Of a stretch of DNA of 64,000 nucleotides, positions 38,224-56,367 are shown piece after piece. Positions within the stretch are counted from its first letter, which is position 1. Each line of letters begins with the position of its first letter. Source of the stretch: an uncultured Candidatus Saccharibacteria bacterium. GTDB lineage: Bacteria > Patescibacteriota > Minisyncoccia > Phycocordibacterales > UBA9973. Location of the stretch: NCBI GenBank assembly GCA_964599225.1, contig CAZRDO010000003.1:8066-72065 (forward strand). Direction: 5' to 3'. The notes below the pieces were generated by a model. The model was not told the origin of the DNA and searched no databases. It worked only from the letters and a program-made list of their open reading frames with translations. Made by a program: the position numbers and the translations under genes.

Positions 38224-38280
38224 TAACAGTAATTCAAAATATCGCTATCGCAATTAGTAAATTATCAATATACCTCATTC

Positions 38281-38481
38281 ATGAAACAAGACTTTTTTAC
38301 CGCAAATAATATCAAGCATCTTGATTACAAGGATACAGAAATCCTCAAAAAGTTTCTCTCTCCGACGGGCAAGATTCTTTCTCGTCGTCGCACAGGTGTG
38401 GCAAGTAAAAATCAGCGCCAGCTCTCACTTGCAATCAAGCGCTCCCGCTTTATGGGACTCCTCCCATACGTCGCGAGATAA
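38281..38481 (+). CDS. rpsR: 30S ribosomal protein S18
   Basis: [43 protein letters not shown] is the canonical S18 sequence. Confidence 0.9.
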
Positions 38482-38494
38482 TTATTGAACAAAC

Positions 38495-38521
38495 TAAAAA
38501 GCACCTGAATAGGTGCTTTTT
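38495..38521. terminator. Bidirectional rho-independent terminator
   Basis: AAAAAGCACCT-GAAT-AGGTGCTTTTT between convergent rpsR and efp. Confidence 0.7.
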
Positions 38522-38573
38522 AGTTTGAATAAATGTATTTACAAGAGCATATACAATTTTACTTCTTTATATA

Positions 38574-39152
38574 CTATGCGCGTTCAGCGTATTCTCCTGT
38601 GACTGTATTGACGATGATTTTGTCACCTTCAGCGATGAAAAGGGGAGTTAAAATTGTTGCACCATTTTCAAGTGTGACTTGTTTGTTGCCGCCAGTGCGT
38701 GTGTCGCCTTTGATTGCAGGCGGTGCGTCTTTGACCACAAATTCCATTTTGACAGGAAGTTCAACTGAGATAGTCTTCTCTTCACCATCGTCATCAAATA
38801 TGACTGCCGTGACAATGGTATTGTCTTTGAGAAAGCGTGCACTCTCTCCAATGAGGCTACTCTCAAGTTTGAATCGATCAGAGGGATTGCCGGGATCACA
38901 AAACCAGAGTTCACCACGGTTTTGGTATAAAAATTTTACTTCACGTTTTATGATATCTGCCTCATCAATTTTGTCAGAGACATGAAATGTTTCGTTGTAG
39001 GTTTTACCAGTGAGGAGGCTCTTGAGCTTGACCTGGTTTTGAGGTTTACGCTGTTGTGTACGGGCCACATGGCTCTCGAGTACCTTGCAAGGCTCACCTT
39101 GGTAGACGATAATTTTGTTTTCGCGGACTTCGTTGTATTCGAGGATAGCCAT
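38574..39152 (-). CDS. efp: Elongation factor P
   Basis: MAILEYNEVRENKIIVYQGEPCKVL...KGDTRTGGNKQVTLENGATILTPLFIAEGDKIIVNTVTGEYAERA (192 aa). The longer track ORF (to 39398) has an 82-aa non-homologous N-terminal extension that overlaps the divergent gene, so I rejected it. Confidence 0.9.
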   Translation of the reverse strand: MAILEYNEVRENKIIVYQGEPCKVLESHVARTQQRKPQNQVKLKSLLTGKTYNETFHVSDKIDEADIIKREVKFLYQNRGELWFCDPGNPSDRFKLESSLIGESARFLKDNTIVTAVIFDDDGEEKTISVELPVKMEFVVKDAPPAIKGDTRTGGNKQVTLENGATILTPLFIAEGDKIIVNTVTGEYAERA

Positions 39153-39357
39153 ATGAATGGGGTTAAAGTTTAAAGTTGGAAACTTGCCCGACTGAAAAGT
39201 TTCAATCTTTCGGGCGGGGTTGATGGAATAAAAATAGGCGAACCGCCTTAAGAGCACTATAGCAATATTAGTGGTTTTTGTGAATACAGATTTAAAACAT
39301 AGAGTTGTTGACTTGAAGAGATCTTTATGGGAATCTGAGTTTAGAAAACTAAAGGCA

Positions 39358-39897
39358 ATGAATATAAATGAGATTGTTAAAGCACCAAAATATTTCAAAG
39401 TTCATTTTGATGAGTCCTATGTAGGCATAGACGGTTATGATAGTGGCCGGGCATATCCAATTACATGTGATGGATTTACGTGCAATGTGTACGGTCTCTC
39501 GGAGGAAGAAGCAGTTACGTTTGATCCACATCGGTTAAGAGGCTTGTTGAGAGGTAGTCGTCTCATAGATATCCTCTGGGATGCACCTGATAGGGAAACC
39601 CTCATGAAAGAAATTGAGAATGATGAAAGGGTGAAAAGTGGAGTCTACAAGCTTGCTCGCTGGACATTAAACGGGCAAATTGAAGACATCCCAGCCTGTT
39701 CCAGAATGTACATTGATAAGAGCGATCCAGCCCTTTCAATTCTTTGCGGTAAGCCGAAGAATGAATTTAATGATGGATGTTTAGGAGGGTGCATTATCCA
39801 AGGTTATGACATTGAGGATGAGACATTAGAAGAGATCAAATGCCCACTTAAAAAAATGTGGGAAGAAAGATCTAAAAAGGCAAAAGTATCTGCATAA
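39358..39897 (+). CDS. Cysteine-rich hypothetical protein
   Basis: Eight Cys (ITCDGFTC, PACSR, LCGKP, DGCLGGC, KCPL). ATG at 39358; the track ORF begins at 39271 with a non-ATG codon. Confidence 0.4.
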   Translation: MNINEIVKAPKYFKVHFDESYVGIDGYDSGRAYPITCDGFTCNVYGLSEEEAVTFDPHRLRGLLRGSRLIDILWDAPDRETLMKEIENDERVKSGVYKLARWTLNGQIEDIPACSRMYIDKSDPALSILCGKPKNEFNDGCLGGCIIQGYDIEDETLEEIKCPLKKMWEERSKKAKVSA

Positions 39898-39909
39898 AAA
39901 TAGGCTCAC

Positions 39910-39945
39910 AAAAATCCCTGCAAATTATGCAGGGATTTTTATTTT
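39910..39945 (+). terminator. Rho-independent terminator
   Basis: 9-bp stem ATCCCTGCA / TGCAGGGAT with an AATTA loop, followed by TTTTTATTTT. Confidence 0.7.
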
Positions 39946-39998
39946 AATTGACTCCTAATCTCATCTATGAGAATCTAAATTTAGAAAACCTTGTAGTT

Positions 39999-40319
39999 AT
40001 GGAAATCCCTGAATTATCCATGGAACGGCTCGTGCACATTATTGCTTCCATGGCGGGTTTCTATGGTAAGAGATGTGAAGCAGTCGTTAATTATGGATTG
40101 GATGAATGTTTTTTATTTCTTGGGCTAGAAGAAAAAGACGTTACCATTTATTATAATGAAATACAGTGTCTGGTTGATAATGACATACTTGAGCTTAGTT
40201 GTGGCTCCGATGAGCCAGGACACGAGACTGAGGTATATGTTTTAACAGATGAGGCGGAGGAAAAGATAAAAAAAATTCTAAAAAACAAAAAGGAATTTTT
40301 TTTAAAGAAACTTACCTAA
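39999..40319 (+). CDS. Hypothetical acidic protein
   Basis: Short ORF between two terminators. ATG at 39999 (MEIPELSM); the track start at 39948 is a non-ATG codon. No domain. Confidence 0.3.
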   Translation: MEIPELSMERLVHIIASMAGFYGKRCEAVVNYGLDECFLFLGLEEKDVTIYYNEIQCLVDNDILELSCGSDEPGHETEVYVLTDEAEEKIKKILKNKKEFFLKKLT

Positions 40320-40346
40320 CGGAGCTTTTCAGCTCCTTTTTCTTTT
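40319..40346 (+). terminator. Rho-independent terminator
   Basis: GGAGCT-TTTC-AGCTCC followed by TTTTTCTTTT. Confidence 0.65.
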
Positions 40347-40378
40347 ATAAAACCTAAAAATTAGCACCCAGGGTCTAA

Positions 40379-40417
40379 TTATTCCTCAGAGCTTCCACTC
40401 GAAGTTTGGATTTCACC
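40379..40417 (-). repeat. Direct-repeat copy A: non-coding duplicate of the last 12 codons plus stop of recA
   Basis: On the minus strand it reads [12 protein letters not shown]-stop. Over the 37-nt shared core (the 39-nt copies minus the differing stop codons) it differs from the genuine recA 3' end (42696-42734, [12 protein letters not shown]-stop) at 4 positions, mostly third-codon positions. It lies 13 nt downstream of the metzincin stop. Confidence 0.8.
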
Positions 40418-40430
40418 TCGGTCTTTTAAA

Positions 40431-42689
40431 TTATAGTTTAATCTGTTTTAAAACTTTGTTAAAAAAAGTCTGGCCGTTTGTAGCTGAGCGCTCTTGTGTG
40501 GAAGATTCTTCAGGACTTCCATCAACAATTTGTATTATCTGTGTGTGAGGTTCAGACAAAGAACCTGAGTCTATATTTGTTGACGAAGCGGTGATCTCAT
40601 ACAGACCAGGTAGTGTACCTTTAGGGATCGTAATCCAGAATATCCACAGCGCGGTAGACGATGAACCATTGATATTAAATACAGTCTCATAGGAAGATAG
40701 ACCATCTTTTGTGAGCGGGGAGTCATACTCAATCTTAAAATTAAAACCTTGAGAAAAGCACTGTACTGGGTTTTGGTTTTTGATTGTGTATATCTCAATC
40801 AGTTTCTTATCATTTGCCGCAACCTCATTTGCATCAATTTTCACTGTCATTCCATCAAAAGGGATATTTTCAACATTCTCATTACCAACAGAGGTAAGAC
40901 TTATGAGCGCAGGCTCTGAACAGTCAGGTTCAGAGTAAGGATATGAGTCAATTCCAACATGGAATGTCACGTAGTCGTTACTTAGGTACTTTATATCTTT
41001 TTGTTTTGTTGGAAACTGTTCAGTAATATATTTGTCTGGTCCCTGGTGTATTTCCACAGAATCTATAACTAGATTATATGAAGGGTCTGAGAAACTATTT
41101 CCAGGGGATAGTGTTGATTTCTTTAGGTCATCACCCCAATCTTGAGTGCTTGGAAAAGCATCGAGTATTGAATTGTTTTTATAGAGTCTAAGACCTGGGT
41201 AATTGAGTGCTTGGTTACTAAGTGCCCCATCAAATCCTAGCGGATAGCGATATTCCAAGGAATATGGTGTCGGCACTACCGTTCCAGTGTCTGAAATAAA
41301 TGAAATAGTAGCTAAACGTTTATTAGATGATTTTTCCATTGGGTAGAGAGTGTATTCTCCTGGTCCAGTGATAGAGACAATATCCGTAGAGGGTATCCAG
41401 CCGAGCAAGGATTTACTCCATGCGTTAAAATGAAGTCCGTATTCACTTGAGCCCATGGTGTCGTACAGATTTCCATATTCAACCGTTGAGCAACCCGACT
41501 CGCCAAGCGTTGTGTTTCCACAATCAAAACCAGAAGAGTGACTTCTTCCAAGCAGGTGTCCAACTTCGTGTGTAAGCACACGATCAAGTGGAGTCCATGA
41601 GAATGGATGATATTGACTCCACGATATATTTTCTCCGTACCACCAACTACTTCCAACTGATGTCGCGAAGGAATCGCCAGAGGCATTGCCGAAGAAGTCT
41701 TCGGAATCTTCACAATTTTGGATGACGTAAGTGAAATCATATTCATCAAGATTAATTTCATTTGCAGTAATGTATGCTTGAAGTTCTGAGTCTGGGGCAA
41801 TGTTCCCCATGAGGCCACAGGTCTCACTATCACGATGTTCTGTAACCCAGCCATAAACCTCTCCAGCAAAAGTTGCTTTGCCATAAGATTGCTCTTCGAA
41901 GAATTTCGTGAAATTGCCATCAAAGATTCGTGTATAGGCGGTTTCAGAATCAAAGGGATTTGTAGTGGTGTCTTCATAATTTACAAGAAAGACTACCATT
42001 GTATATTCAGGCTTATCAACAATATCAAGTGTATGAACATGAGGGGCAGATATTGGTATAGGGTTTTTTTGGTTTGCGGTGGCGTCTTCAGTTTTTTTAT
42101 TTTGGCTGGTTATTTTGCCAATAAAAAATTCACCAATTTTGTGACCGGTTACGGTTACATTTTGATGTTCATCAATATCTTTAATTTCTGATCCAATATT
42201 TACAAATAAATACTCGCTCCCCGAATTAAGTATATATGAGGGCTCAGCATGTTCGCCTTTTGAAGGGAATGATTTGTCTTTGGTACTATGGATATGAATA
42301 GTGGAGAGAGCCCCTCCGACTGTAGATTCTGATTCGAGGAGATCAGAGAGGCTAGAAGGTATGGCTTGCAAAGTCTGCTTATCAAAAAGAAGAGAAGTGA
42401 ATTGAGTTGGAGAAGATCTTGCAATTTTTGCAAGATAGTAACGGCGTTCAATTAGTTTCTGACGAAGATTCGTTTCGTTCTGGACAGGGCTTTTAAGTAA
42501 GACCCCTATTTCTGCATTAATAGTTTGTGCTGATTCGACTAATTTTTTTGCTTCCACTGACACTATTTGTGCGGACTGAGTATTTTCTCGCAGGAGGGAA
42601 GGGAACTTAATTATAAAAAAGCCAAAAAACACAAGTACTGCTAGTGATGCAATTACTTTGAAAGTATCAAACTGATGATTATTTTGCAT
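40431..42689 (-). CDS. Secreted/membrane-anchored metzincin-like zinc metalloprotease
   Basis: N-terminal anchor, then an extended zinc motif HEVGHLLGRSH (HExxHxxGxxH). The ATG lies only 6 nt after the recA stop codon. Confidence 0.7.
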   Translation of the reverse strand: MQNNHQFDTFKVIASLAVLVFFGFFIIKFPSLLRENTQSAQIVSVEAKKLVESAQTINAEIGVLLKSPVQNETNLRQKLIERRYYLAKIARSSPTQFTSLLFDKQTLQAIPSSLSDLLESESTVGGALSTIHIHSTKDKSFPSKGEHAEPSYILNSGSEYLFVNIGSEIKDIDEHQNVTVTGHKIGEFFIGKITSQNKKTEDATANQKNPIPISAPHVHTLDIVDKPEYTMVVFLVNYEDTTTNPFDSETAYTRIFDGNFTKFFEEQSYGKATFAGEVYGWVTEHRDSETCGLMGNIAPDSELQAYITANEINLDEYDFTYVIQNCEDSEDFFGNASGDSFATSVGSSWWYGENISWSQYHPFSWTPLDRVLTHEVGHLLGRSHSSGFDCGNTTLGESGCSTVEYGNLYDTMGSSEYGLHFNAWSKSLLGWIPSTDIVSITGPGEYTLYPMEKSSNKRLATISFISDTGTVVPTPYSLEYRYPLGFDGALSNQALNYPGLRLYKNNSILDAFPSTQDWGDDLKKSTLSPGNSFSDPSYNLVIDSVEIHQGPDKYITEQFPTKQKDIKYLSNDYVTFHVGIDSYPYSEPDCSEPALISLTSVGNENVENIPFDGMTVKIDANEVAANDKKLIEIYTIKNQNPVQCFSQGFNFKIEYDSPLTKDGLSSYETVFNINGSSSTALWIFWITIPKGTLPGLYEITASSTNIDSGSLSEPHTQIIQIVDGSPEESSTQERSATNGQTFFNKVLKQIKL

Positions 42690-42695
42690 GAGTCT

Positions 42696-42734
42696 CTATT
42701 CCTCAGCACTTCCACTTGAGGTTTGGATTTCACC
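42696..42734 (-). repeat. Direct-repeat copy B (functional 3' end of recA)
   Basis: Homologous to 40379-40417; together they bracket the metzincin gene. Confidence 0.8.
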
Positions 42735-43748
42735 AAAGCGTTTGCGAATTTCTTTCATCAAGTAGTCAGTGATCTTTGGATTTGCGCGTAAGTGTTGGCG
42801 AGTTGCATCATAGCCCCGTTCAAGTTTCTGATCAGCTCCATCCTTATCAACATACGAGTACGAAGCGCCACTCTTTTTGACAATACCGATTTTCTCACCG
42901 AGCGCCATGAGCTCACCTTCGCGTGAAATACCTTCGCCGTAGATAATATCGAATTCAGTTTGCTTAAATGGTGCAGCAACTTTGTTCTTCACCACTTTCA
43001 CTCGTGTGCGGCCGCCGACGACTTCCTCACCTTTCTTGATTTGTGCAATGCGACGGATATCCATACGGATAGATGTGTAGAATTTGAGTGCCTTACCACC
43101 TGGGGTAGTTTCAGGATTACCAAACATCACACCAATCTGCATACGAATTTGGTTGATGAAGATCACAATGGTATTTGATTTGGAGACAATAGCAGTGAGC
43201 TTGCGGAGTGCTTGGGACATCAGACGTGCCTGCTTACCCATATGTTGCTGTCCCATATCACCTTCGATTTCATCTTTGGGAGTGAGTGCGGCGACCGAGT
43301 CGATGACGACGACGTCGATCTTGCCTGAGCGGACAAGTGACTCACAGATTTCAAGACCTTGCTCTCCTGTGTCAGGTTGAGAGATGAGAAGATCATTAAT
43401 ATTGACGCCTAAATTTTTGGTATAGACCGGATCCATAGCGTGCTCTGCATCGATGTAGGCACAGACACCGCCTTTCTTCTGTGCTTCAGCGACTATGTGA
43501 AGTGCGAGGGTCGTTTTACCAGAAGATTCAGGTCCATAGATTTCAATAATACGGCCACGGGGGACACCGCCGACGCCGAGCGCCATATCGAGTCCAAGTG
43601 AACCTGTCGGAATGACATCGATATCAACTTTGGGCGTGTCACCCATTTTCATAATCGAGCCTTCGCCGAATTTAGTTTGGATTGATTTAATGGTATCTTC
43701 GATTGCCATGTCCATGGTTTTGGCTGGCTTTGGTTGTTTTTTTATCAT
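42696..43748 (-). CDS. recA: Recombinase RecA
   Basis: Walker [14 protein letters not shown]1/L2 loop regions, and near-identity to the RecA consensus along the whole length. Confidence 0.95.
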
Positions 43749-43757
43749 AGTAGTAAG

Positions 43758-44168
43758 TTAGCTTTTAAGTACTCCGCTTCCTTCAGTATTCTCAAGTACT
43801 GACTCAATGTGTGGGGTGTACATGAATCTATAGGTCAGCACTTTTGTTTTACCCCAGCGATTTGAGGCACTGACGCTCAGTACATTATATCCCGAAAGTG
43901 GGGCAATGACATCAGCGAATGATCCGTCTGGAGAGAGGAGGACTTGGCGACCGTTTATATAGAGGGTGTTGACGCGCTCGGTAGTGCCAGAGAGTGGAAG
44001 TGTCGGTTCACTATACGTCATACCATTTTTGATATTTGAGAGGGAAACTGACATACCACGTATTGCAAGCGTTCCTCGAAAGTACGCATAGGCGATGACA
44101 ATCACAAACAGTAGACCAAGCGCCAGTGCACCGAGGCCAATTTTATGATGTTTAGTAATTGTCCACAT
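43758..44168 (-). CDS. Membrane-anchored hypothetical protein
   Basis: 136-aa ORF with an N-terminal TM, placed between ftsK and recA in the same orientation. Confidence 0.45.
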   Translation of the reverse strand: MWTITKHHKIGLGALALGLLFVIVIAYAYFRGTLAIRGMSVSLSNIKNGMTYSEPTLPLSGTTERVNTLYINGRQVLLSPDGSFADVIAPLSGYNVLSVSASNRWGKTKVLTYRFMYTPHIESVLENTEGSGVLKS

Positions 44169-44210
44169 ACGAGTTAGTAAATAGTGAGTAGTAAATAGTA
44201 AATAGAAACA

Positions 44211-50310: not shown

Positions 50311-53300
50311 ATGAATAAAAGCTTATATTTCCGTAATAAAAATATGAAACGCCTTGCCAAACTAACCGCATTTTCTGCGGCCTTTTTATTACTCCTCGAG
50401 CCTGTTTTTGTTGTCTTAGCTCAACAAGAACTACCTTCTTCTAATTCCATACAGGCTTCAGAAACTGTGGTACCAGTCACTGTTTCTGAAGTAGAGCCAA
50501 GTCCCACTAATACTCAGGAAGTAAATCCTAGTGAGATAAAAGATCTTATTGAAAGTAAGGTTATTGAAAAAGAGCTAAGGGGCAAATTAAAGGATAGGGA
50601 CCGAAATGATAATATAAAATTAGGTGGGGAGGGGATATCAAAAACACTCCAAGCAACTGAAAGTACAAAATTATTACCTAAAACCGATCCGTCCACTGGG
50701 GCACTCTTATATTCCTATCGTGTGGGACTTCCTGAAGGTAGAAATAATTTAACGCCTGAGCTTGCTCTTGAGTACAATAGCAATAGTAAAGATTCTCGTA
50801 GTTATATTGGATCGGGATGGGAGTTTAATATTCCTTCAATTGTACGGATTAACAAATATGGTTCAGAGCAAATGTACGATCATCATGATTTCTCCTCAAG
50901 TCTTTCAGGGGAGTTAATAAATATTTCTGGAATTTCTTATTCTGCGAAGGTAGAAAATAATGATTTTCTCTCCTATACGTTTTCAAATAATACTTGGACA
51001 GTTTACGATAAAGACGGTACGAGGTACGTATTTGGTCAAAGTGCAGAAACTCGGCAAGATGATCCTAGTGATAGCGCTCGTATTTATAAATGGATGCTTG
51101 AAGAAGTGCGCGATACGAATGATAATTACATTCGTTATGAATATTATAAAGACACAGGTCAGATTTATCCCTCGAAAATAATATATACAGGCCACGGTTC
51201 AGAAGAAGGAATGTTTGAGGTTATTTTTAATCGAGATGGAACATTTACAATGAGTCCTACATTGTATAGTACTGGTTTCGAAGTGAAAACTAAGTATAGA
51301 ATTTCTAGTATTGAAGTAGTAGAGAATGGTAATTGGGTTAAAAGATACGAAATTAGTTATGATGATACACAAAGCGGCAGACTTCCTATAGCAATTACAG
51401 AGTCGGGAAAAGATTTACAATCCGGAGTAGTTTCAATTGATAGTCCGACTAAGTTTACCTATAAAACACAAGAGACATCATTGGGATGGTCACAGACTGA
51501 GAATAATCTCTGGGAACTTCCTCACGCACTCTATTCTGGTGAAAATGGACCCACTCATATTCAAGTGAGAGATATAAATAATGATGCGTATCCGGATGTG
51601 CTCTTCTTCTCTGATGAAGAAACAGAGTGTCTTTATAAGAATACTTTCATAAATAATACTCATGGGGGATGGATAAATTATGGTGGCTGTGGAGCAGATT
51701 GGGAAATCCCAATATACTTAAGAAATCCCTATAATTTGTACTCTGACTATGGAACTCGTGCATTTGATTACAATGGTGATTTTCTCACCGATCTCATATG
51801 GTCATATGCATCTAACAAAGGCGTAACTGTTCCTGTCTCACAGACATTCAGAAATACTGGAGACCCAATTGACCCTTGGGTGCCCGATGATGTATATCCT
51901 CCGGTAGCGTTTGTGTATTACGATAATGTGCATGCTGATAATGGCGCGCAGATTATTGATGTAAACGGCGATGGGTTGCAAGATATCGTACGTTCTTTTA
52001 GTGATGGTTCTGAGCAAGATTATACTTATTTGAATAACGGATCTGGATGGATACAAGCAGCTCCAAATGATTGGGTATTGCCTGTGGGTATTATCACTCA
52101 AGATGGTGGACCAGATGATAACTTCACTCATGCACAATTTGTAGATATTAATGGGGATGGACTCACTGATATTTATTGGAGTGATGATGATAATCCAATG
52201 CTTGAGCGTACCTTTATCAATAATGGTCATACTTGGCTTCCTGATAGCATAGGTGACTGGACTATTCCTTTACCATTTTGGTCTAGAGAAGGTGCTGAAA
52301 TTGGGAATACGGATGCGGGCAGTCGAAGTACTGACGTGAATGGTGATGGAGCTATTGATCTTGTCTCTAGCCATTGTTGGAATTCGAATTGTGACGAAGT
52401 TGTAGGTTCGGTATGGCTAAATAAAAATGATGAATTTTCATCCGGAAGCTCATTCTATTTTACAGAAACTATTGTCCCTGAAGCTTTTGTAAATAACAAT
52501 TATGTGACCTTATACTCAGTTATTGTCGATATGAACGCTGATGGTATGGATGATATAACGTATGCATTGAGTGGAGAAGATGCGAGAACACACTTATCAA
52601 AATCTACTCCGTTCGTCAATCTTCTTGTAAGTATCGAAACACCATATGGGGGAGTTGCAAACATTAGTTATAAGCCATCGACAAAGTATTATGATGATAG
52701 CGGTATACTTCAGAATCCAAAGCTTCCGATTTTGATCACAACTGTTGATTCAATTACCACCGATGATGGATTTGGAAACGTTGCAACTGAGCATTTCACA
52801 TATGCTGATGGATTTTATTATTTTAATTCTCCACACGATCGCAAATTTGCTGGATTTGGAGTAGTGACAAGTACAGATTCTGTCGGTAATGTCGTGAAGA
52901 CCTACTATCACCAAGGCAATACCACAAACACATCTCTTGGTGAGGACACGGATCATATTTCCAAAATGGGTAGATCATATCGCACTGAAGAGTATGATGA
53001 CAGTGGTAATTTATATCGTCTTACAGTGAATAAGTGGGATAAATATGATATCGGTGTTGATCATGATTTTGTGAAACTTGCTCGTACCACCACGCTTACC
53101 TATGATGGTGATTCTGATCACAAAGATACTGCTGTTGAATATACATACGACAACGCGAACGGTAATCTGCTTACCGAAATAAACTATGGAGAAGTCATAG
53201 CAAATACTGATGGAAGTTTTACTGACACGAGTACGGATAAAGGTACAGTGGCTTATTTGTACGCAATAAATGGTAGTGGCCGATTCGCGATTTCTCAGCA

Positions 53301-56300
53301 AACACTTGTCAATAATGCTGGCAACAAAGTGAGTGATGCAAAATATTATTATGATAATCAAGCTTTTGGGGCACTCACACTTGGGAATACTACTAAGGTT
53401 CGTAATTGGAAAACAGGCTCACAGTGGGTTGATACACTAACAAGTTATAATTCATTTGGTCTGCCGATTACCACCACAGATCCGCGTGGCAAAGTCACTC
53501 AATATACAAACGATTCATACAATCTCTATCCTGCTACTATTACCAACTCACTGCTTCAAACTACGCAATATGTATATGATTATTCTTCCGGTAAACCAAC
53601 ACAGATCACTGATGCGAATAATCTAGTCACAAAAATAATGTTTGATGGCTTGGATCGTATTATCGAAGAAAAAATCCCTGACCTTACGACGCCAAGTACA
53701 CTGGTTACTAAAACAACATATACCTACACTGATACGCCAGGTGCGGTATCTGTGCACAAGACAGACTATTTAGATGACGCTACGAATGTTGATAGCTACC
53801 AATATTTTGACGGTCTTGGTCGTATCTTTCAAGAACGTAGAGAAGCCGAAGCCACTAATACATTTAATGTCAAAGATAGTATCTACAATACTCGCGGGCT
53901 TCTGGAGAAAGAATCTCTACCCTATGCCTCGACTGGAAGTGCTCGTACAGTATCCACTACTGATGGAGCACTTTATTCGACAAACACGTACGATGCACTC
54001 GCACGACCACTCACAACATCAAACATTCTCGGTACTACAGCCTTTGTATATGATGATTGGAAAACTACGATCACTGATACCAACGGAAAAGAGAAAATTT
54101 TCACTAATGGTGCAAGAGGTAATCTTACTAAAGTTGAAGAAAAAAATGGTGTGAGCACATACACGACATCCTATAAATGGGATCTGGTAAAAAATCTCAC
54201 TAAAATCACAGATGCACTCGGGAATATCCGCAATTTCACCTATGACGGACTTGGCCGCAAGCTGACTGCAGAAGACCTCCATGCTTCAGCTGACACAACA
54301 TTCGGGATTTGGTCTTATGGATATGATGATGCTGGTAATCTCACGCAATCAATTGATCCAAAGAATCAGACGATTAATTACACATATGATGATATCAATC
54401 GTAAATTAACTGAAGATTTTACTGGCGCGACTGGAACAGAAATTGTGTACGCGTACGATAGTGGGATATATGGCAAAGGGTATCTTGCAAGTGCCACTCT
54501 TCCTTCAGTTACCACTACCTACACTTACAATCCTCACGGCACTCTTGCAAGTGAGACAAAAACGATCGATGGAAGTGCATATACTACAAGTTATACATAT
54601 GATCGTTTAGGCAACCAAACCGTAGTGACCTACCCAGACCTTTCTCAAATGAAATATTTATATAGCACAGCAGGTTATCTCAACAAAATTCGTCGAAAGG
54701 AAAATGGCGGGAGTTTTGTCGATGTAGTGACGAGTTTCAATTATGCTCCAACAGGAGAAGTGAAAGTCATTAATTTTGCTAATGGTGTCAGTACAACCAA
54801 CACGTATGACGCAACTAAGCTCTACCGTCATACTAATAAAAAAACAAACATTGGTTCGACCAAATATCAAAATATTGGTTATACATATGATTCGGTTGGT
54901 AATATCACACAAATTGTCGATTCATCAAATACTAATACTGCGAAAACACTTACTTTTACCTACGACGATTTGTATCGACTTCTTTCAGCGACCTCAAATG
55001 GTGCGGTGGCAGGTGGTAACTTTACTGAAACGTATTCTTACAATGAACTTGGGAACATTCTCTCAAAGTCGGATGTTGGTACGTATGCGTATGCTGGCAA
55101 TACTGGTACACTCTTTGCCAATCCTCACGCTCCGACATCGATCGCCAGCGTTTCTCGGACCTATGATAAAAACGGCAATCTGTTAAATGATGGTGCCAAT
55201 ATATATACTTGGAATTACAAAAATCAACTTGCAAGTACGACTACTCCTGGTGGAGCGCTCTCATATATTTATGACCATAGTGGCTCAAGACAAAAGTATA
55301 TTACCCAAACCTCCACAACAATCACCCCAAACCGGTACTATGAAGAAGAGGGAACAATAAAACGTCGCCATATCTACGGAGGAGACACGTTGCTGGCAAC
55401 GATTGAAAAAGATGGAACAACGATCACTCCATACTATGTCCACAGTGACCACTTAGGATCGGTGGAGAAGATCACGAACCAGGCGGGGTTAGTCACCGAG
55501 CTCAATGATTTCTACCCATTCGGCAAGGTTCGGTACACTGAAGGAGGTACTGGAGGAGATAAAACATTCCTTGGGAAATATCATGATGTTGAGAGTGGTC
55601 TTGAATATTTAGAAGCACGGTATTATGGTAGCAAGCTTGGACAGTTTACTACTCAGGATCCGGCGTTTTTAGTTGTGGGAAATCCGAATGCAATTAAGTC
55701 ACTTACTTCACTCGAATTTGTCCAATATCTTTCTGATCCACAGGCAATGAATAGCTACAATTACGCGCGGAATAATCCGATTAAATACAAAGATGATGGA
55801 GGGAAATATTGGGAGTCAGCTCTCGATATTGCTTCATTATCACTGTCTCTAAGGGACTACCAAGCGAAACCAACACTTAAGAACTATCTTTTTGTTAGTG
55901 CCGATGTACTATCATTAGCATTTCCGGTTCCAGCATTTATCGGTTATGCTCGTCATGCTGATGAACTTGGAGATGCAGCAGGTATCTTAAAACGTCATGA
56001 ATCGATGGGAGGGCATACTCTAAAAACACATGTTGGACAGAGCAATGAGGCTCTTAAGGCACGATTTAATAACCCAAGATTTCATTCAGACTATTCAACA
56101 ACATTTCACTCTGAAGAAATTGGTAACCATGCAACATATAAAAACATTCAGAATAATATTGATAAAATTAATTCATGGATGGCAAATCCCAATGCTTTTA
56201 AATTAGAAATAAGTTCTAATCTAAGTGAAAATTTGGGCCATGGTTTTACCAGGGATGGCCATATTCTTGAAAATCTTACTGAAGTTCGGTTGATACTTAC

Positions 56301-56367
56301 GAAAACACAAAATGGTAAAGAATATATAAAATCATCGTATCCTTTTAAAAGTAGTAATAGTAATTAA
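50311..56367 (+). CDS. RHS/YD-repeat polymorphic toxin with Tc-toxin-B-like N-terminal region and variable C-terminal toxin domain
   Basis: Signal peptide; an alternative ATG at 50344 gives a better signal peptide. SpvB-like segment (YSYRVGLPEGRNNLTPELALEYNS...GSGWEFNIPSI). FG-GAP/VCBS-like repeats (DINNDAYPDV, DVNGDGLQDI, DINGDGLTDI, DVNGDGAIDL). Many YD repeats (YTYDGLGRKL, YGYDDAGNLT, YTYDRLGNQT). RHS core (RYYGSKLGQFTTQDP...NSYNYARNNPIKYKDDGG), then ~190 aa of unique C-terminus. Confidence 0.85.
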   Translation: MNKSLYFRNKNMKRLAKLTAFSAAFLLLLEPVFVVLAQQELPSSNSIQASETVVPVTVSEVEPSPTNTQEVNPSEIKDLIESKVIEKELRGKLKDRDRNDNIKLGGEGISKTLQATESTKLLPKTDPSTGALLYSYRVGLPEGRNNLTPELALEYNSNSKDSRSYIGSGWEFNIPSIVRINKYGSEQMYDHHDFSSSLSGELINISGISYSAKVENNDFLSYTFSNNTWTVYDKDGTRYVFGQSAETRQDDPSDSARIYKWMLEEVRDTNDNYIRYEYYKDTGQIYPSKIIYTGHGSEEGMFEVIFNRDGTFTMSPTLYSTGFEVKTKYRISSIEVVENGNWVKRYEISYDDTQSGRLPIAITESGKDLQSGVVSIDSPTKFTYKTQETSLGWSQTENNLWELPHALYSGENGPTHIQVRDINNDAYPDVLFFSDEETECLYKNTFINNTHGGWINYGGCGADWEIPIYLRNPYNLYSDYGTRAFDYNGDFLTDLIWSYASNKGVTVPVSQTFRNTGDPIDPWVPDDVYPPVAFVYYDNVHADNGAQIIDVNGDGLQDIVRSFSDGSEQDYTYLNNGSGWIQAAPNDWVLPVGIITQDGGPDDNFTHAQFVDINGDGLTDIYWSDDDNPMLERTFINNGHTWLPDSIGDWTIPLPFWSREGAEIGNTDAGSRSTDVNGDGAIDLVSSHCWNSNCDEVVGSVWLNKNDEFSSGSSFYFTETIVPEAFVNNNYVTLYSVIVDMNADGMDDITYALSGEDARTHLSKSTPFVNLLVSIETPYGGVANISYKPSTKYYDDSGILQNPKLPILITTVDSITTDDGFGNVATEHFTYADGFYYFNSPHDRKFAGFGVVTSTDSVGNVVKTYYHQGNTTNTSLGEDTDHISKMGRSYRTEEYDDSGNLYRLTVNKWDKYDIGVDHDFVKLARTTTLTYDGDSDHKDTAVEYTYDNANGNLLTEINYGEVIANTDGSFTDTSTDKGTVAYLYAINGSGRFAISQQTLVNNAGNKVSDAKYYYDNQAFGALTLGNTTKVRNWKTGSQWVDTLTSYNSFGLPITTTDPRGKVTQYTNDSYNLYPATITNSLLQTTQYVYDYSSGKPTQITDANNLVTKIMFDGLDRIIEEKIPDLTTPSTLVTKTTYTYTDTPGAVSVHKTDYLDDATNVDSYQYFDGLGRIFQERREAEATNTFNVKDSIYNTRGLLEKESLPYASTGSARTVSTTDGALYSTNTYDALARPLTTSNILGTTAFVYDDWKTTITDTNGKEKIFTNGARGNLTKVEEKNGVSTYTTSYKWDLVKNLTKITDALGNIRNFTYDGLGRKLTAEDLHASADTTFGIWSYGYDDAGNLTQSIDPKNQTINYTYDDINRKLTEDFTGATGTEIVYAYDSGIYGKGYLASATLPSVTTTYTYNPHGTLASETKTIDGSAYTTSYTYDRLGNQTVVTYPDLSQMKYLYSTAGYLNKIRRKENGGSFVDVVTSFNYAPTGEVKVINFANGVSTTNTYDATKLYRHTNKKTNIGSTKYQNIGYTYDSVGNITQIVDSSNTNTAKTLTFTYDDLYRLLSATSNGAVAGGNFTETYSYNELGNILSKSDVGTYAYAGNTGTLFANPHAPTSIASVSRTYDKNGNLLNDGANIYTWNYKNQLASTTTPGGALSYIYDHSGSRQKYITQTSTTITPNRYYEEEGTIKRRHIYGGDTLLATIEKDGTTITPYYVHSDHLGSVEKITNQAGLVTELNDFYPFGKVRYTEGGTGGDKTFLGKYHDVESGLEYLEARYYGSKLGQFTTQDPAFLVVGNPNAIKSLTSLEFVQYLSDPQAMNSYNYARNNPIKYKDDGGKYWESALDIASLSLSLRDYQAKPTLKNYLFVSADVLSLAFPVPAFIGYARHADELGDAAGILKRHESMGGHTLKTHVGQSNEALKARFNNPRFHSDYSTTFHSEEIGNHATYKNIQNNIDKINSWMANPNAFKLEISSNLSENLGHGFTRDGHILENLTEVRLILTKTQNGKEYIKSSYPFKSSNSN

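Follow-up and report, generated by a model that had tools for sequence, protein, structure and literature searches.

A predicted metalloprotease gene inserted directly behind recA and bracketed by copies of the recA 3′ end in a Candidatus Saccharibacteria genome

Introduction

Integrative elements and their cis-mobilisable derivatives insert at the 3′ ends of protein-coding genes, for example fda in Streptococcus thermophilus, and are classically recognised by direct repeats of the target gene 3′ end. The target duplications of transposons and insertion sequences (IS) are short (2-14 bp), and integron gene cassettes are marked by an attC site, an imperfect palindrome with GTTRRRY core sites after the open reading frame (ORF), together with an integron integrase. 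Homology-facilitated illegitimate recombination (HFIR) is reported from naturally transformable species, among them Acinetobacter baylyi and Streptococcus pneumoniae; it is known from crosses made in the laboratory, in which DNA of the recipient is usually lost, and transfer hotspots flanked by core genes are said to be exchanged by homologous recombination. The 13-kb H47 island of Escherichia coli, with repeats of 144-148 bp that are 76% identical, has no integrase of its own, and excises and integrates independently of RecA via unidentified host functions, in short blocks of identity (PMC3191183, PMC5426353). The recA mobile element (RME) of Vibrio cholerae spans 32.8 kb and carries a phage integrase; it splits recA at nucleotide 494, has 9-bp inverted repeats at its borders and supplies a second, complete recA (PMC4405046). 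Here we describe a locus that shares features with several of these systems, in a 64,000-nucleotide (nt) stretch of DNA from an uncultured Candidatus Saccharibacteria bacterium (contig CAZRDO010000003.1, positions 8,066 to 72,065; hereafter the window, with positions counted from its first letter). In it, the end of recA occurs twice, on either side of a gene predicted to encode a metzincin-type zinc metalloprotease of 752 amino acids (aa).

Bacteria of the candidate phyla radiation (CPR) are uncultivated, and gene acquisition by their small genomes is largely inferred. The locus provides a datable, base-level footprint of gene gain beside a core gene without mobile-element machinery, and this recA-tail footprint recurs in two lineages.

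Results

The minus strand from 39000 to 44200 was re-read together with the ORF list, and the coordinates and the 6- and 13-nt spacings of a preliminary description of this DNA all held. The recA end is laid out as follows, with the basis of the assignment given last where one applies.

42696..43748, minus strand: recA, the functional gene, 350 aa (ORF list; Pfam RecA_N and RecA_C on an identical product)
42696..42734, minus strand: repeat copy 1, the functional recA tail, 12 codons plus TAG (sequence alignment)
42690..42695, minus strand: 6-nt spacer AGACTC, from the recA stop to the protease ATG
40431..42689, minus strand: predicted metzincin-type cargo gene, 752 aa (ORF list, profile matches, motif)
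40418..40430, minus strand: 13-nt spacer, from the protease stop to repeat copy 2
40379..40417, minus strand: repeat copy 2, a non-coding recA pseudo-tail, 12 codons plus TAA (sequence alignment)

The functional 3′ end of recA reads GGTGAAATCCAAACCTCAAGTGGAAGTGCTGAGGAATAG and the pseudo-tail at 40379-40417 reads GGTGAAATCCAAACTTCGAGTGGAAGCTCTGAGGAATAA. The two were identical at 34 of 38 positions (40380-40417 against 42697-42734), or at 34 of 39 with the third base of the stop codon counted, which makes the difference at 4 of 37 core positions reported earlier essentially right, and their longest perfectly identical blocks were 14 and 10 nt. This pair was the top-ranking direct repeat of the whole window and lies well above chance: its local alignment scored 28, and none of 176 control comparisons exceeded 15.5. 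A search for the repeat elsewhere, as the preliminary description had proposed, gave no third copy in the 64-kb window, and a degenerate pattern back-translated from the tail, sought as a source element, had no match in viral or metagenome collections. The pseudo-tail was out of frame with the protease and was followed by no ORF on the minus strand. At the other end of the insert, the junction of recA and the protease had exactly the same bases in L001, a contig of 2.3 kb that was assembled separately.

The closest RecA proteins, 86-88% identical, came from Paceibacteria/Nomurabacteria-type metagenome-assembled genomes (MAGs). As siblings we took contigs L082 and L083/L084/L085, whose RecA was more than 90% identical; the RecA cluster at 90% identity holds three sequences, two of which are those of L082 and of L083/L084/L085. 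The protease was absent from these four contigs, in which recA was followed by 64 nt, a reverse-strand gene (294-318 aa) and efp. DNA homology between window and siblings covered recA and ended at 42695, one base past the recA stop. It resumed in two places, at a terminator that both possess (39945-39904) and from 39348 on. The metzincin gene is thus a lineage-specific insertion directly after recA, as had been proposed. The metzincin gene and its bracketing repeats are real, although the window-specific DNA, from 42694 to about 39946, extends further than first described and takes in a terminator hairpin (40321-40336) and an orphan gene (orf123) beyond copy 2. The siblings have a single recA tail and no metzincin, but they also lack orf123 and the second terminator, and the exact empty site was not recovered from them. 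The features beyond copy 2 are as follows.

40321..40336, no strand: terminator hairpin GGAGCTTTTCAGCTCC, between copy 2 and orf123, absent from siblings
39948..40319, plus strand: orf123, an orphan convergent with the protease, in DNA that the siblings lack
39904..39945, no strand: bidirectional terminator common to window and siblings (86% identity)
39271..39897, plus strand: orf208, a Cys-rich variable gene
38574..39152, minus strand: efp, the conserved gene to the right of the variable interval

The sibling counterpart of the bidirectional terminator lies about 35 nt after the recA stop. For orf123 there was no Pfam, NCBIfam, PADLOC or PHROG match, and no homolog in 172 related loci.

From their second codon on (the last 36 nt, including the stop), the sibling recA tails were identical to the functional copy, and all five differences between the copies were assigned to the pseudo-tail because of this match. 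They fell at codon positions 3, 3, 3, 1 and 3, and four of the five were silent, leaving the residue or stop unchanged. The probability of at least four of five differences at third positions was 0.035, and that of at least four of five being silent under neutral change, with a transition bias of 2, was 0.009. Given this bias towards silent third positions, the pseudo-tail appears to have diverged while still coding, which suggests that it was once part of a working recA allele and that the tails of two recA alleles have become juxtaposed. It differed from the sibling consensus at 12.8% of sites; the divergence on the window lineage's own branch was about 9-21% in the flanking genes and 4.3% in the present recA, so that by this measure the pseudo-tail resembles the flanking genes, unlike the present recA. 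Simple duplication followed by decay is disfavoured because the tails of two diverged alleles sit side by side. The suggestion that one copy derives from a diverged recA is accordingly upheld by the silent-site bias (P about 0.01-0.035). An element-borne replacement of the functional tail is not supported, since the comparison with siblings identifies the functional end as the native-like copy.

The genes around the insert differ in their histories. Counts of sites at which one of the three was odd, given in the order window : L082 : L083, were as follows.

ftsK 5′ part: 146:15:19, window as outgroup
orf136: 65:14:13, window as outgroup
ssb-rpsF: 110:22:22, window as outgroup
recA: 45:43:50, star-like
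efp: 23:33:43, star-like

At the 3′ end of ftsK, the odd one out was L082. Between L082 and L083, recA diverged by 9.7%, which exceeded the divergence of about 8% in the fast-evolving orf136. As the histories of recA and efp are unlike those of their flanks, these patterns indicate that recA and efp alleles have been exchanged among lineages by homologous recombination, a warning against the use of recA as a phylogenetic marker in this clade.

The order ftsK, a 136-aa gene, recA, efp and opposite-strand rpsR-ssb-rpsF was conserved in 80 genome loci, and the gap between recA and efp ranged from -1 to 5067 nt, with a median of 392 nt (132 loci). The interval is a variable slot between two core genes, and the accessory hotspot suspected there is borne out by this range. 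Homologs of the protease, orf123 and orf208 were found in none of the 80 genome loci and 80 additional metagenome loci. Compact arrangements, in which recA is followed by a variable gene and no relic, occurred at 16 of 155 loci. At these 16 (for example L073, L151, L143 and L168), a same-strand gene other than efp begins -10 to +60 nt from the recA stop, and diverse genes have been repeatedly wired into the recA transcription unit within the clade.

Next to efp lies a hypervariable slot for Cys-rich genes. Only the first 30 or so codons of orf208 were homologous to the sibling slot gene (L082:7640-8596, 318 aa; L083:11118-12002, 294 aa); this start and the terminator are common to window and siblings, and the body of the 208-aa window product is unrelated. 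The two sibling slot genes, which contain CxxC motifs, were only 43% identical to each other. On the far side of efp, the siblings (L083:12976-14488; L082:9459-10976) hold two extra genes before ssb that are absent from the window (38224-38573), one of 301 aa without a Pfam match and one of 118 aa belonging to the 23S_rRNA_IVP family; no repeats were detected flanking the pair. Elsewhere in the window, a 2018-aa ORF (50311-56367) was about 29% diverged in DNA from its copies in L083 and L085. It may be polymorphic-toxin-like, as its sibling counterpart has SpvB, RHS-repeat and FG-GAP Pfam matches. A TACTAHTTAC motif upstream of two genes had only 2 matches, against 0.3 expected.

The cargo product is predicted to be a membrane-anchored metzincin-type zinc metalloprotease, with a hydrophobic helix at its N terminus. 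Residues 374-384 (41538-41570) read HEVGHLLGRSH, which fits the HExxHxxGxxH zinc-binding motif of metzincins (clan MA(M)). Residues H374, E375, H378, G381, H384 and M412, the last a candidate Met-turn residue, were invariant in an alignment of four sequences of the closest homologs (alignment A1); the structure model had a mean predicted local distance difference test (pLDDT) score of 50.5, too poor to confirm a Met-turn or for a fold search. Profile scores were all below the cut-off (in brackets): 20.6 (27) for Reprolysin_5, 16 (24) for Peptidase_M10 and 32 (110.8) for TIGR03296, an M6 domain model matched at E = 1e-7. Two homologs barely passed the thresholds of Reprolysin_5 or Reprolysin_3. 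Exact look-ups of the product gave no match, and comparison of its sequence with solved structures gave no informative one. A word-indexed search returned only 3 homologs, but the protease is no orphan: an exhaustive search returned 4305 homologous cluster representatives at E <= 1e-3, 201 of them with E <= 1e-30, which places it by sequence in a large, uncharacterised and uncurated family. Many members of this family are 600-1300 aa long with extra C-terminal domains and fall just below the Pfam thresholds for Reprolysin and Matrixin. A link of homologs to recA or to flanking repeats was ruled out for P0002, P0003 and P0247, which lie in unrelated contexts without repeats. Because no terminator-like site was found on the minus strand between recA and the protease, and because a GAGGA Shine-Dalgarno-like motif (42700-42704) lies in the recA tail 10 nt upstream of the protease ATG, the protease is probably co-transcribed with recA.

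We scanned every recA locus (about 158), with the 80 additional metagenome loci included, for a downstream copy of its own tail. One further duplication was found, on a contig of a Paceibacterota MAG (L007:5756-6347; JAOAUE010000005.1) whose RecA is 80% identical to that of the window; the 80 metagenome loci added none. In L007, the last 36 nt of recA, ATGAAAGAAGTCGTAGCAGATAGCGCGAGTGAGTAA (MKEVVADSASE plus stop), are repeated 556 nt downstream with 36 of 36 positions identical, and between the copies lies a single 174-aa ORF with 30% G+C in a contig of 40% G+C. The ATG of this cargo overlaps the recA stop (TAATG) and its TGA falls inside the first bases of the second copy, so that the spacers between repeat and cargo are 0 and 0 nt; the sequence ATGAAAGA opens both repeat copies and the cargo ORF. 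Both the tail and the cargo of L007 are unrelated to those of the window, and as an independent case it argues for a homology-dependent process and against a sequence-specific att site. An exact empty site for L007 was not found, the nearest relatives being about 75% identical in DNA with different downstream genes.

Among the tails of 2,583 long ORFs in 1.9 Mb of related DNA, no other tail-cargo-tail structure was detected, and the only hits were three tandem duplications without cargo. In the first (L097:8240-8360), the last 29 nt of efp and a 12-nt spacer are triplicated in tandem as a 41-nt unit bounded by AGAGTAAAT microhomology. The second (L022, minus strand, ORF 1-681 with the 120 nt that follow) has a 62-nt unit, in which the last 37 nt of the gene recur 26 nt past its stop; the matched stretch of 40 nt extends 3 nt beyond the stop and lies among CTGACCCCATTAGC repeats. 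The third (L118, minus strand, around 760-870) is a 48-nt tandem duplication in an M16-like gene that leads to a premature stop and is either real or an assembly error. Separately, intergenic regions of L100, L109, L024, L034, L015 and L008 contained families of 30-70-nt palindromic repeats, such as AAACTTGTCAACCTGGCAGGTTGACAAGTTT, which are present in several copies per locus, in many cases at the ends of genes, and have the look of repetitive extragenic palindromic (REP) or terminator sequences.

As in 3′-end integrative elements, the insert in the window is bracketed by direct repeats of a gene 3′ end, and the preliminary description had read it as the product of site-specific integration. 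This did not hold up. Its observation that the 2.3-kb block contains no integrase was correct, and no recombinase, integrase or transposase was found in the 2.75-kb window-specific block or among 20 other window ORFs tested; no tRNA gene was present in the block or the window region tested, and no phage or defence signatures were found. There were no phage relatives of the protease or of the L007 cargo, and neither had a PHROG or PADLOC match. Space for arm-type sites is lacking, with only 6 and 13 nt between repeats and cargo (0 and 0 in L007). The same att sequence was found at none of the other recA loci (about 158 in all), the only other case among them having an unrelated tail and unrelated cargo. 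An att-site-like nucleotide constraint on the recA tail was considered and dropped: its invariant run of 36 nt exceeded any other in recA across three lineages, but others reached 35 and 32 nt. RNA folds of the repeats were not significant, with z = -1.5 for copy 2 plus flank and z = -0.3 for copy 1 plus flank, and neither was that of the L007 tail region (z between -0.3 and -1.5); the sibling tail region gave z = -2.75, largely owed to the sibling terminator. A decayed island, offered earlier to account for the missing integrase, is a poor fit to two inserts that each consist of exactly one ORF with 0-13 nt to spare. Two other classes of element were rejected. For a transposon or IS with target-site duplication, there was no transposase, there were no terminal inverted repeats at the insert ends, and the duplication measures 36-39 nt. 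For an integron gene cassette, there was no GTT core at the repeat boundaries, no significant fold and no integrase.

Discussion

We tentatively favour a recA-anchored, integrase-independent recombination event that left behind the stump of a displaced resident recA allele. The donor would have been related Paceibacteria DNA in which the protease was already packed directly behind its own recA; compact arrangements of this kind are common in the clade, and suitable donors should be common with them. This DNA would have recombined into the chromosome with one crossover placed by homology in recA, while the other end, which had no homologous partner, would have been joined illegitimately 39 nt before the stop of the resident recA, as in HFIR. 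The incoming recA, with its own tail, would now be the functional gene, and the protease would be read through from the recA promoter with GAGGA as its ribosome-binding site, as the layout suggests. The last 39 nt of the old recA would persist as non-coding DNA before the old downstream terminator, and no integrase would be needed at any step. The insertion, the repeat, the allele mosaicism at both core genes and the divergence of the pseudo-tail in the manner of coding sequence are observed; the order of events and the type of joint are inferred.

Such an event accounts for the coding-type divergence of the pseudo-tail and for its level, for the mosaicism, for the missing integrase, for the differing repeats in the two cases and for the preference for a highly conserved anchor gene. 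Several points weigh against it. The L007 copies are identical at 36 of 36 positions, which implies a donor and recipient of the same species, where an ordinary double crossover should be easier. Both joints are tidy, falling 36-39 nt short of the recA stop and just 0-13 nt beyond the cargo, which random illegitimate joining does not predict and which can be rationalised only by survivorship, longer duplications being unstable and shorter ones undetected. We found no donor genome with recA and the protease minus the stump, and no genome with an allele of the pseudo-tail type as its functional recA end. The star-like patterns of recA and efp could also mean a later import of the whole recA-efp block, in which case the mosaicism would have no bearing on the insertion. 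Candidate microhomology at the joints, AGAC at three junction-proximal spots in the window and ATGAAAGA at the start of both repeat copies and of the cargo in L007, is not decisive.

The tidy geometry is better fitted by the main rival, a Campbell-type insertion, which is possible although on balance we doubt it. Here a circular, promoterless one-gene cassette carrying a copy of the recA tail would have undergone a single crossover with the chromosomal tail to give tail-cargo-tail, the exchange being made by host short-homology recombination or by a recombinase acting in trans, and excision would be possible in principle. Two independent lineages show the exact attL-cargo-attR geometry, each with a single ORF and 0-13 nt left over, and their repeats, of similar length (39 and 36 nt), both run up to the stop codon. 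The pseudo-tail resembles the tail of another recA allele, as expected of an element-borne copy, the perfect repeats of L007 suit a recent single crossover, and the integrase-less H47 island of E. coli offers a precedent (PMC3191183, PMC5426353). However, identity blocks of 14 and 10 nt are short for RecA-driven exchange, no circular form, further cassette copy or related element was found, the closest protease homologs lie in unrelated contexts without repeats, and the origin of a first circle with a recA tail is left unexplained. If the repeats were instead attL and attR of an integrase-bearing element at the recA 3′ end, now a remnant or minimal form whose recombination genes were lost or lie elsewhere in the genome, then the classic signature of target 3′-end repeats and the absence of the insert from sibling lineages would both follow, and 64 kb of inspected DNA leaves room for an integrase elsewhere. 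We nevertheless consider this improbable: neither the block nor the tested window ORFs encode an integrase, the 6 and 13 nt between repeats and cargo (0 and 0 in L007) are too little for arm sites or decayed DNA, the window and L007 differ in both repeat sequence and cargo, the recA tail, less conserved than any other part of the gene, makes a poor att target, and the functional tail is the native-type copy and not an element-borne one.

A purely local origin has a similarly slim chance. The recA tail would have been copied on the spot, by a long target-site duplication during insertion or by a tandem duplication that the gene later entered, and the downstream copy would since have drifted neutrally. 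Tandem duplications of gene tails without cargo do occur (the 41-nt unit of efp present three times in L097, and the 62-nt unit of L022), the identical L007 copies fit a fresh duplication, and 5 differences in 39 positions are compatible with the age of the lineage split. On the other hand, the silent third-position bias (P = 0.009-0.035) is unexpected for a non-coding copy, there is no transposase or terminal inverted repeat, and we know of no bacterial transposition system that makes target duplications of 36-39 nt; the tandem route would require two rare events at one spot, twice over. Finally, the window and L007 both come from metagenome assemblies, and the junction from protease to pseudo-tail has no independent contig, which would allow for a chimeric join of strains during assembly. 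This is highly improbable, as another contig, assembled separately, has exactly the same junction of recA and the protease, the copies share no exact match longer than 14 nt, which is below assembler k-mer sizes, and a chimera would require the same repeat on both sides of the cargo at its true location.

It is conceivable, if improbable, that Paceibacteria dock single promoterless genes onto the end of recA by an integrase-free and previously undescribed route. The docked units would be one-ORF cassettes with a 36-39-nt copy of the host recA tail, inserted exactly at the recA stop and expressed by read-through, with excision possible; specificity for recA might come from high local RecA activity at its own gene or from a trans-acting factor. 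Were this so, the two cases described here would be the first members of a recA-tail cassette system. Should the tidy geometry of one gene and 36-39 nt turn up repeatedly, a specific mechanism that wires new genes into the recA transcription unit would be indicated.

Among described systems, HFIR resembles the recA-anchored event that we favour: in both, homology in a conserved gene anchors one end of the incoming DNA, the second end is joined without homology, foreign genes adjoining the anchor are carried in, and no integrase takes part. The event proposed here differs in that its joint would lie upstream of the end of the anchor gene and leave a duplicate of 36-39 nt. The H47 island, like the window insert, lacks an integrase and is flanked by imperfect direct repeats, but those repeats are not gene ends, whereas the window insert is a single gene whose 36-39-nt repeats are the coding end of recA. 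Elements that integrate at gene 3′ ends likewise have cargo bracketed by repeats of the target 3′ end and leave the target gene intact; they depend on a tyrosine integrase, their own or ancestral, and on an att core conserved among hosts, in contrast to the one-ORF inserts seen here, with two unrelated repeats, no integrase found and no space for arm sites. The RME of V. cholerae shares with the window the association of a horizontally acquired insert with recA and the lateral movement of a recA allele, but in the window recA is kept whole, no integrase was found and the repeats are direct and not inverted. The recA-efp interval resembles core-flanked transfer hotspots in holding different accessory genes in each lineage and in the allele exchange of its flanking core genes; ordinary hotspot exchange leaves no duplicated gene end, and the recA stump is an unusual extra here. 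The locus is best described as a combination of two known phenomena, exchange at a core-flanked hotspot and an illegitimate or short-homology joint that duplicated a gene end.

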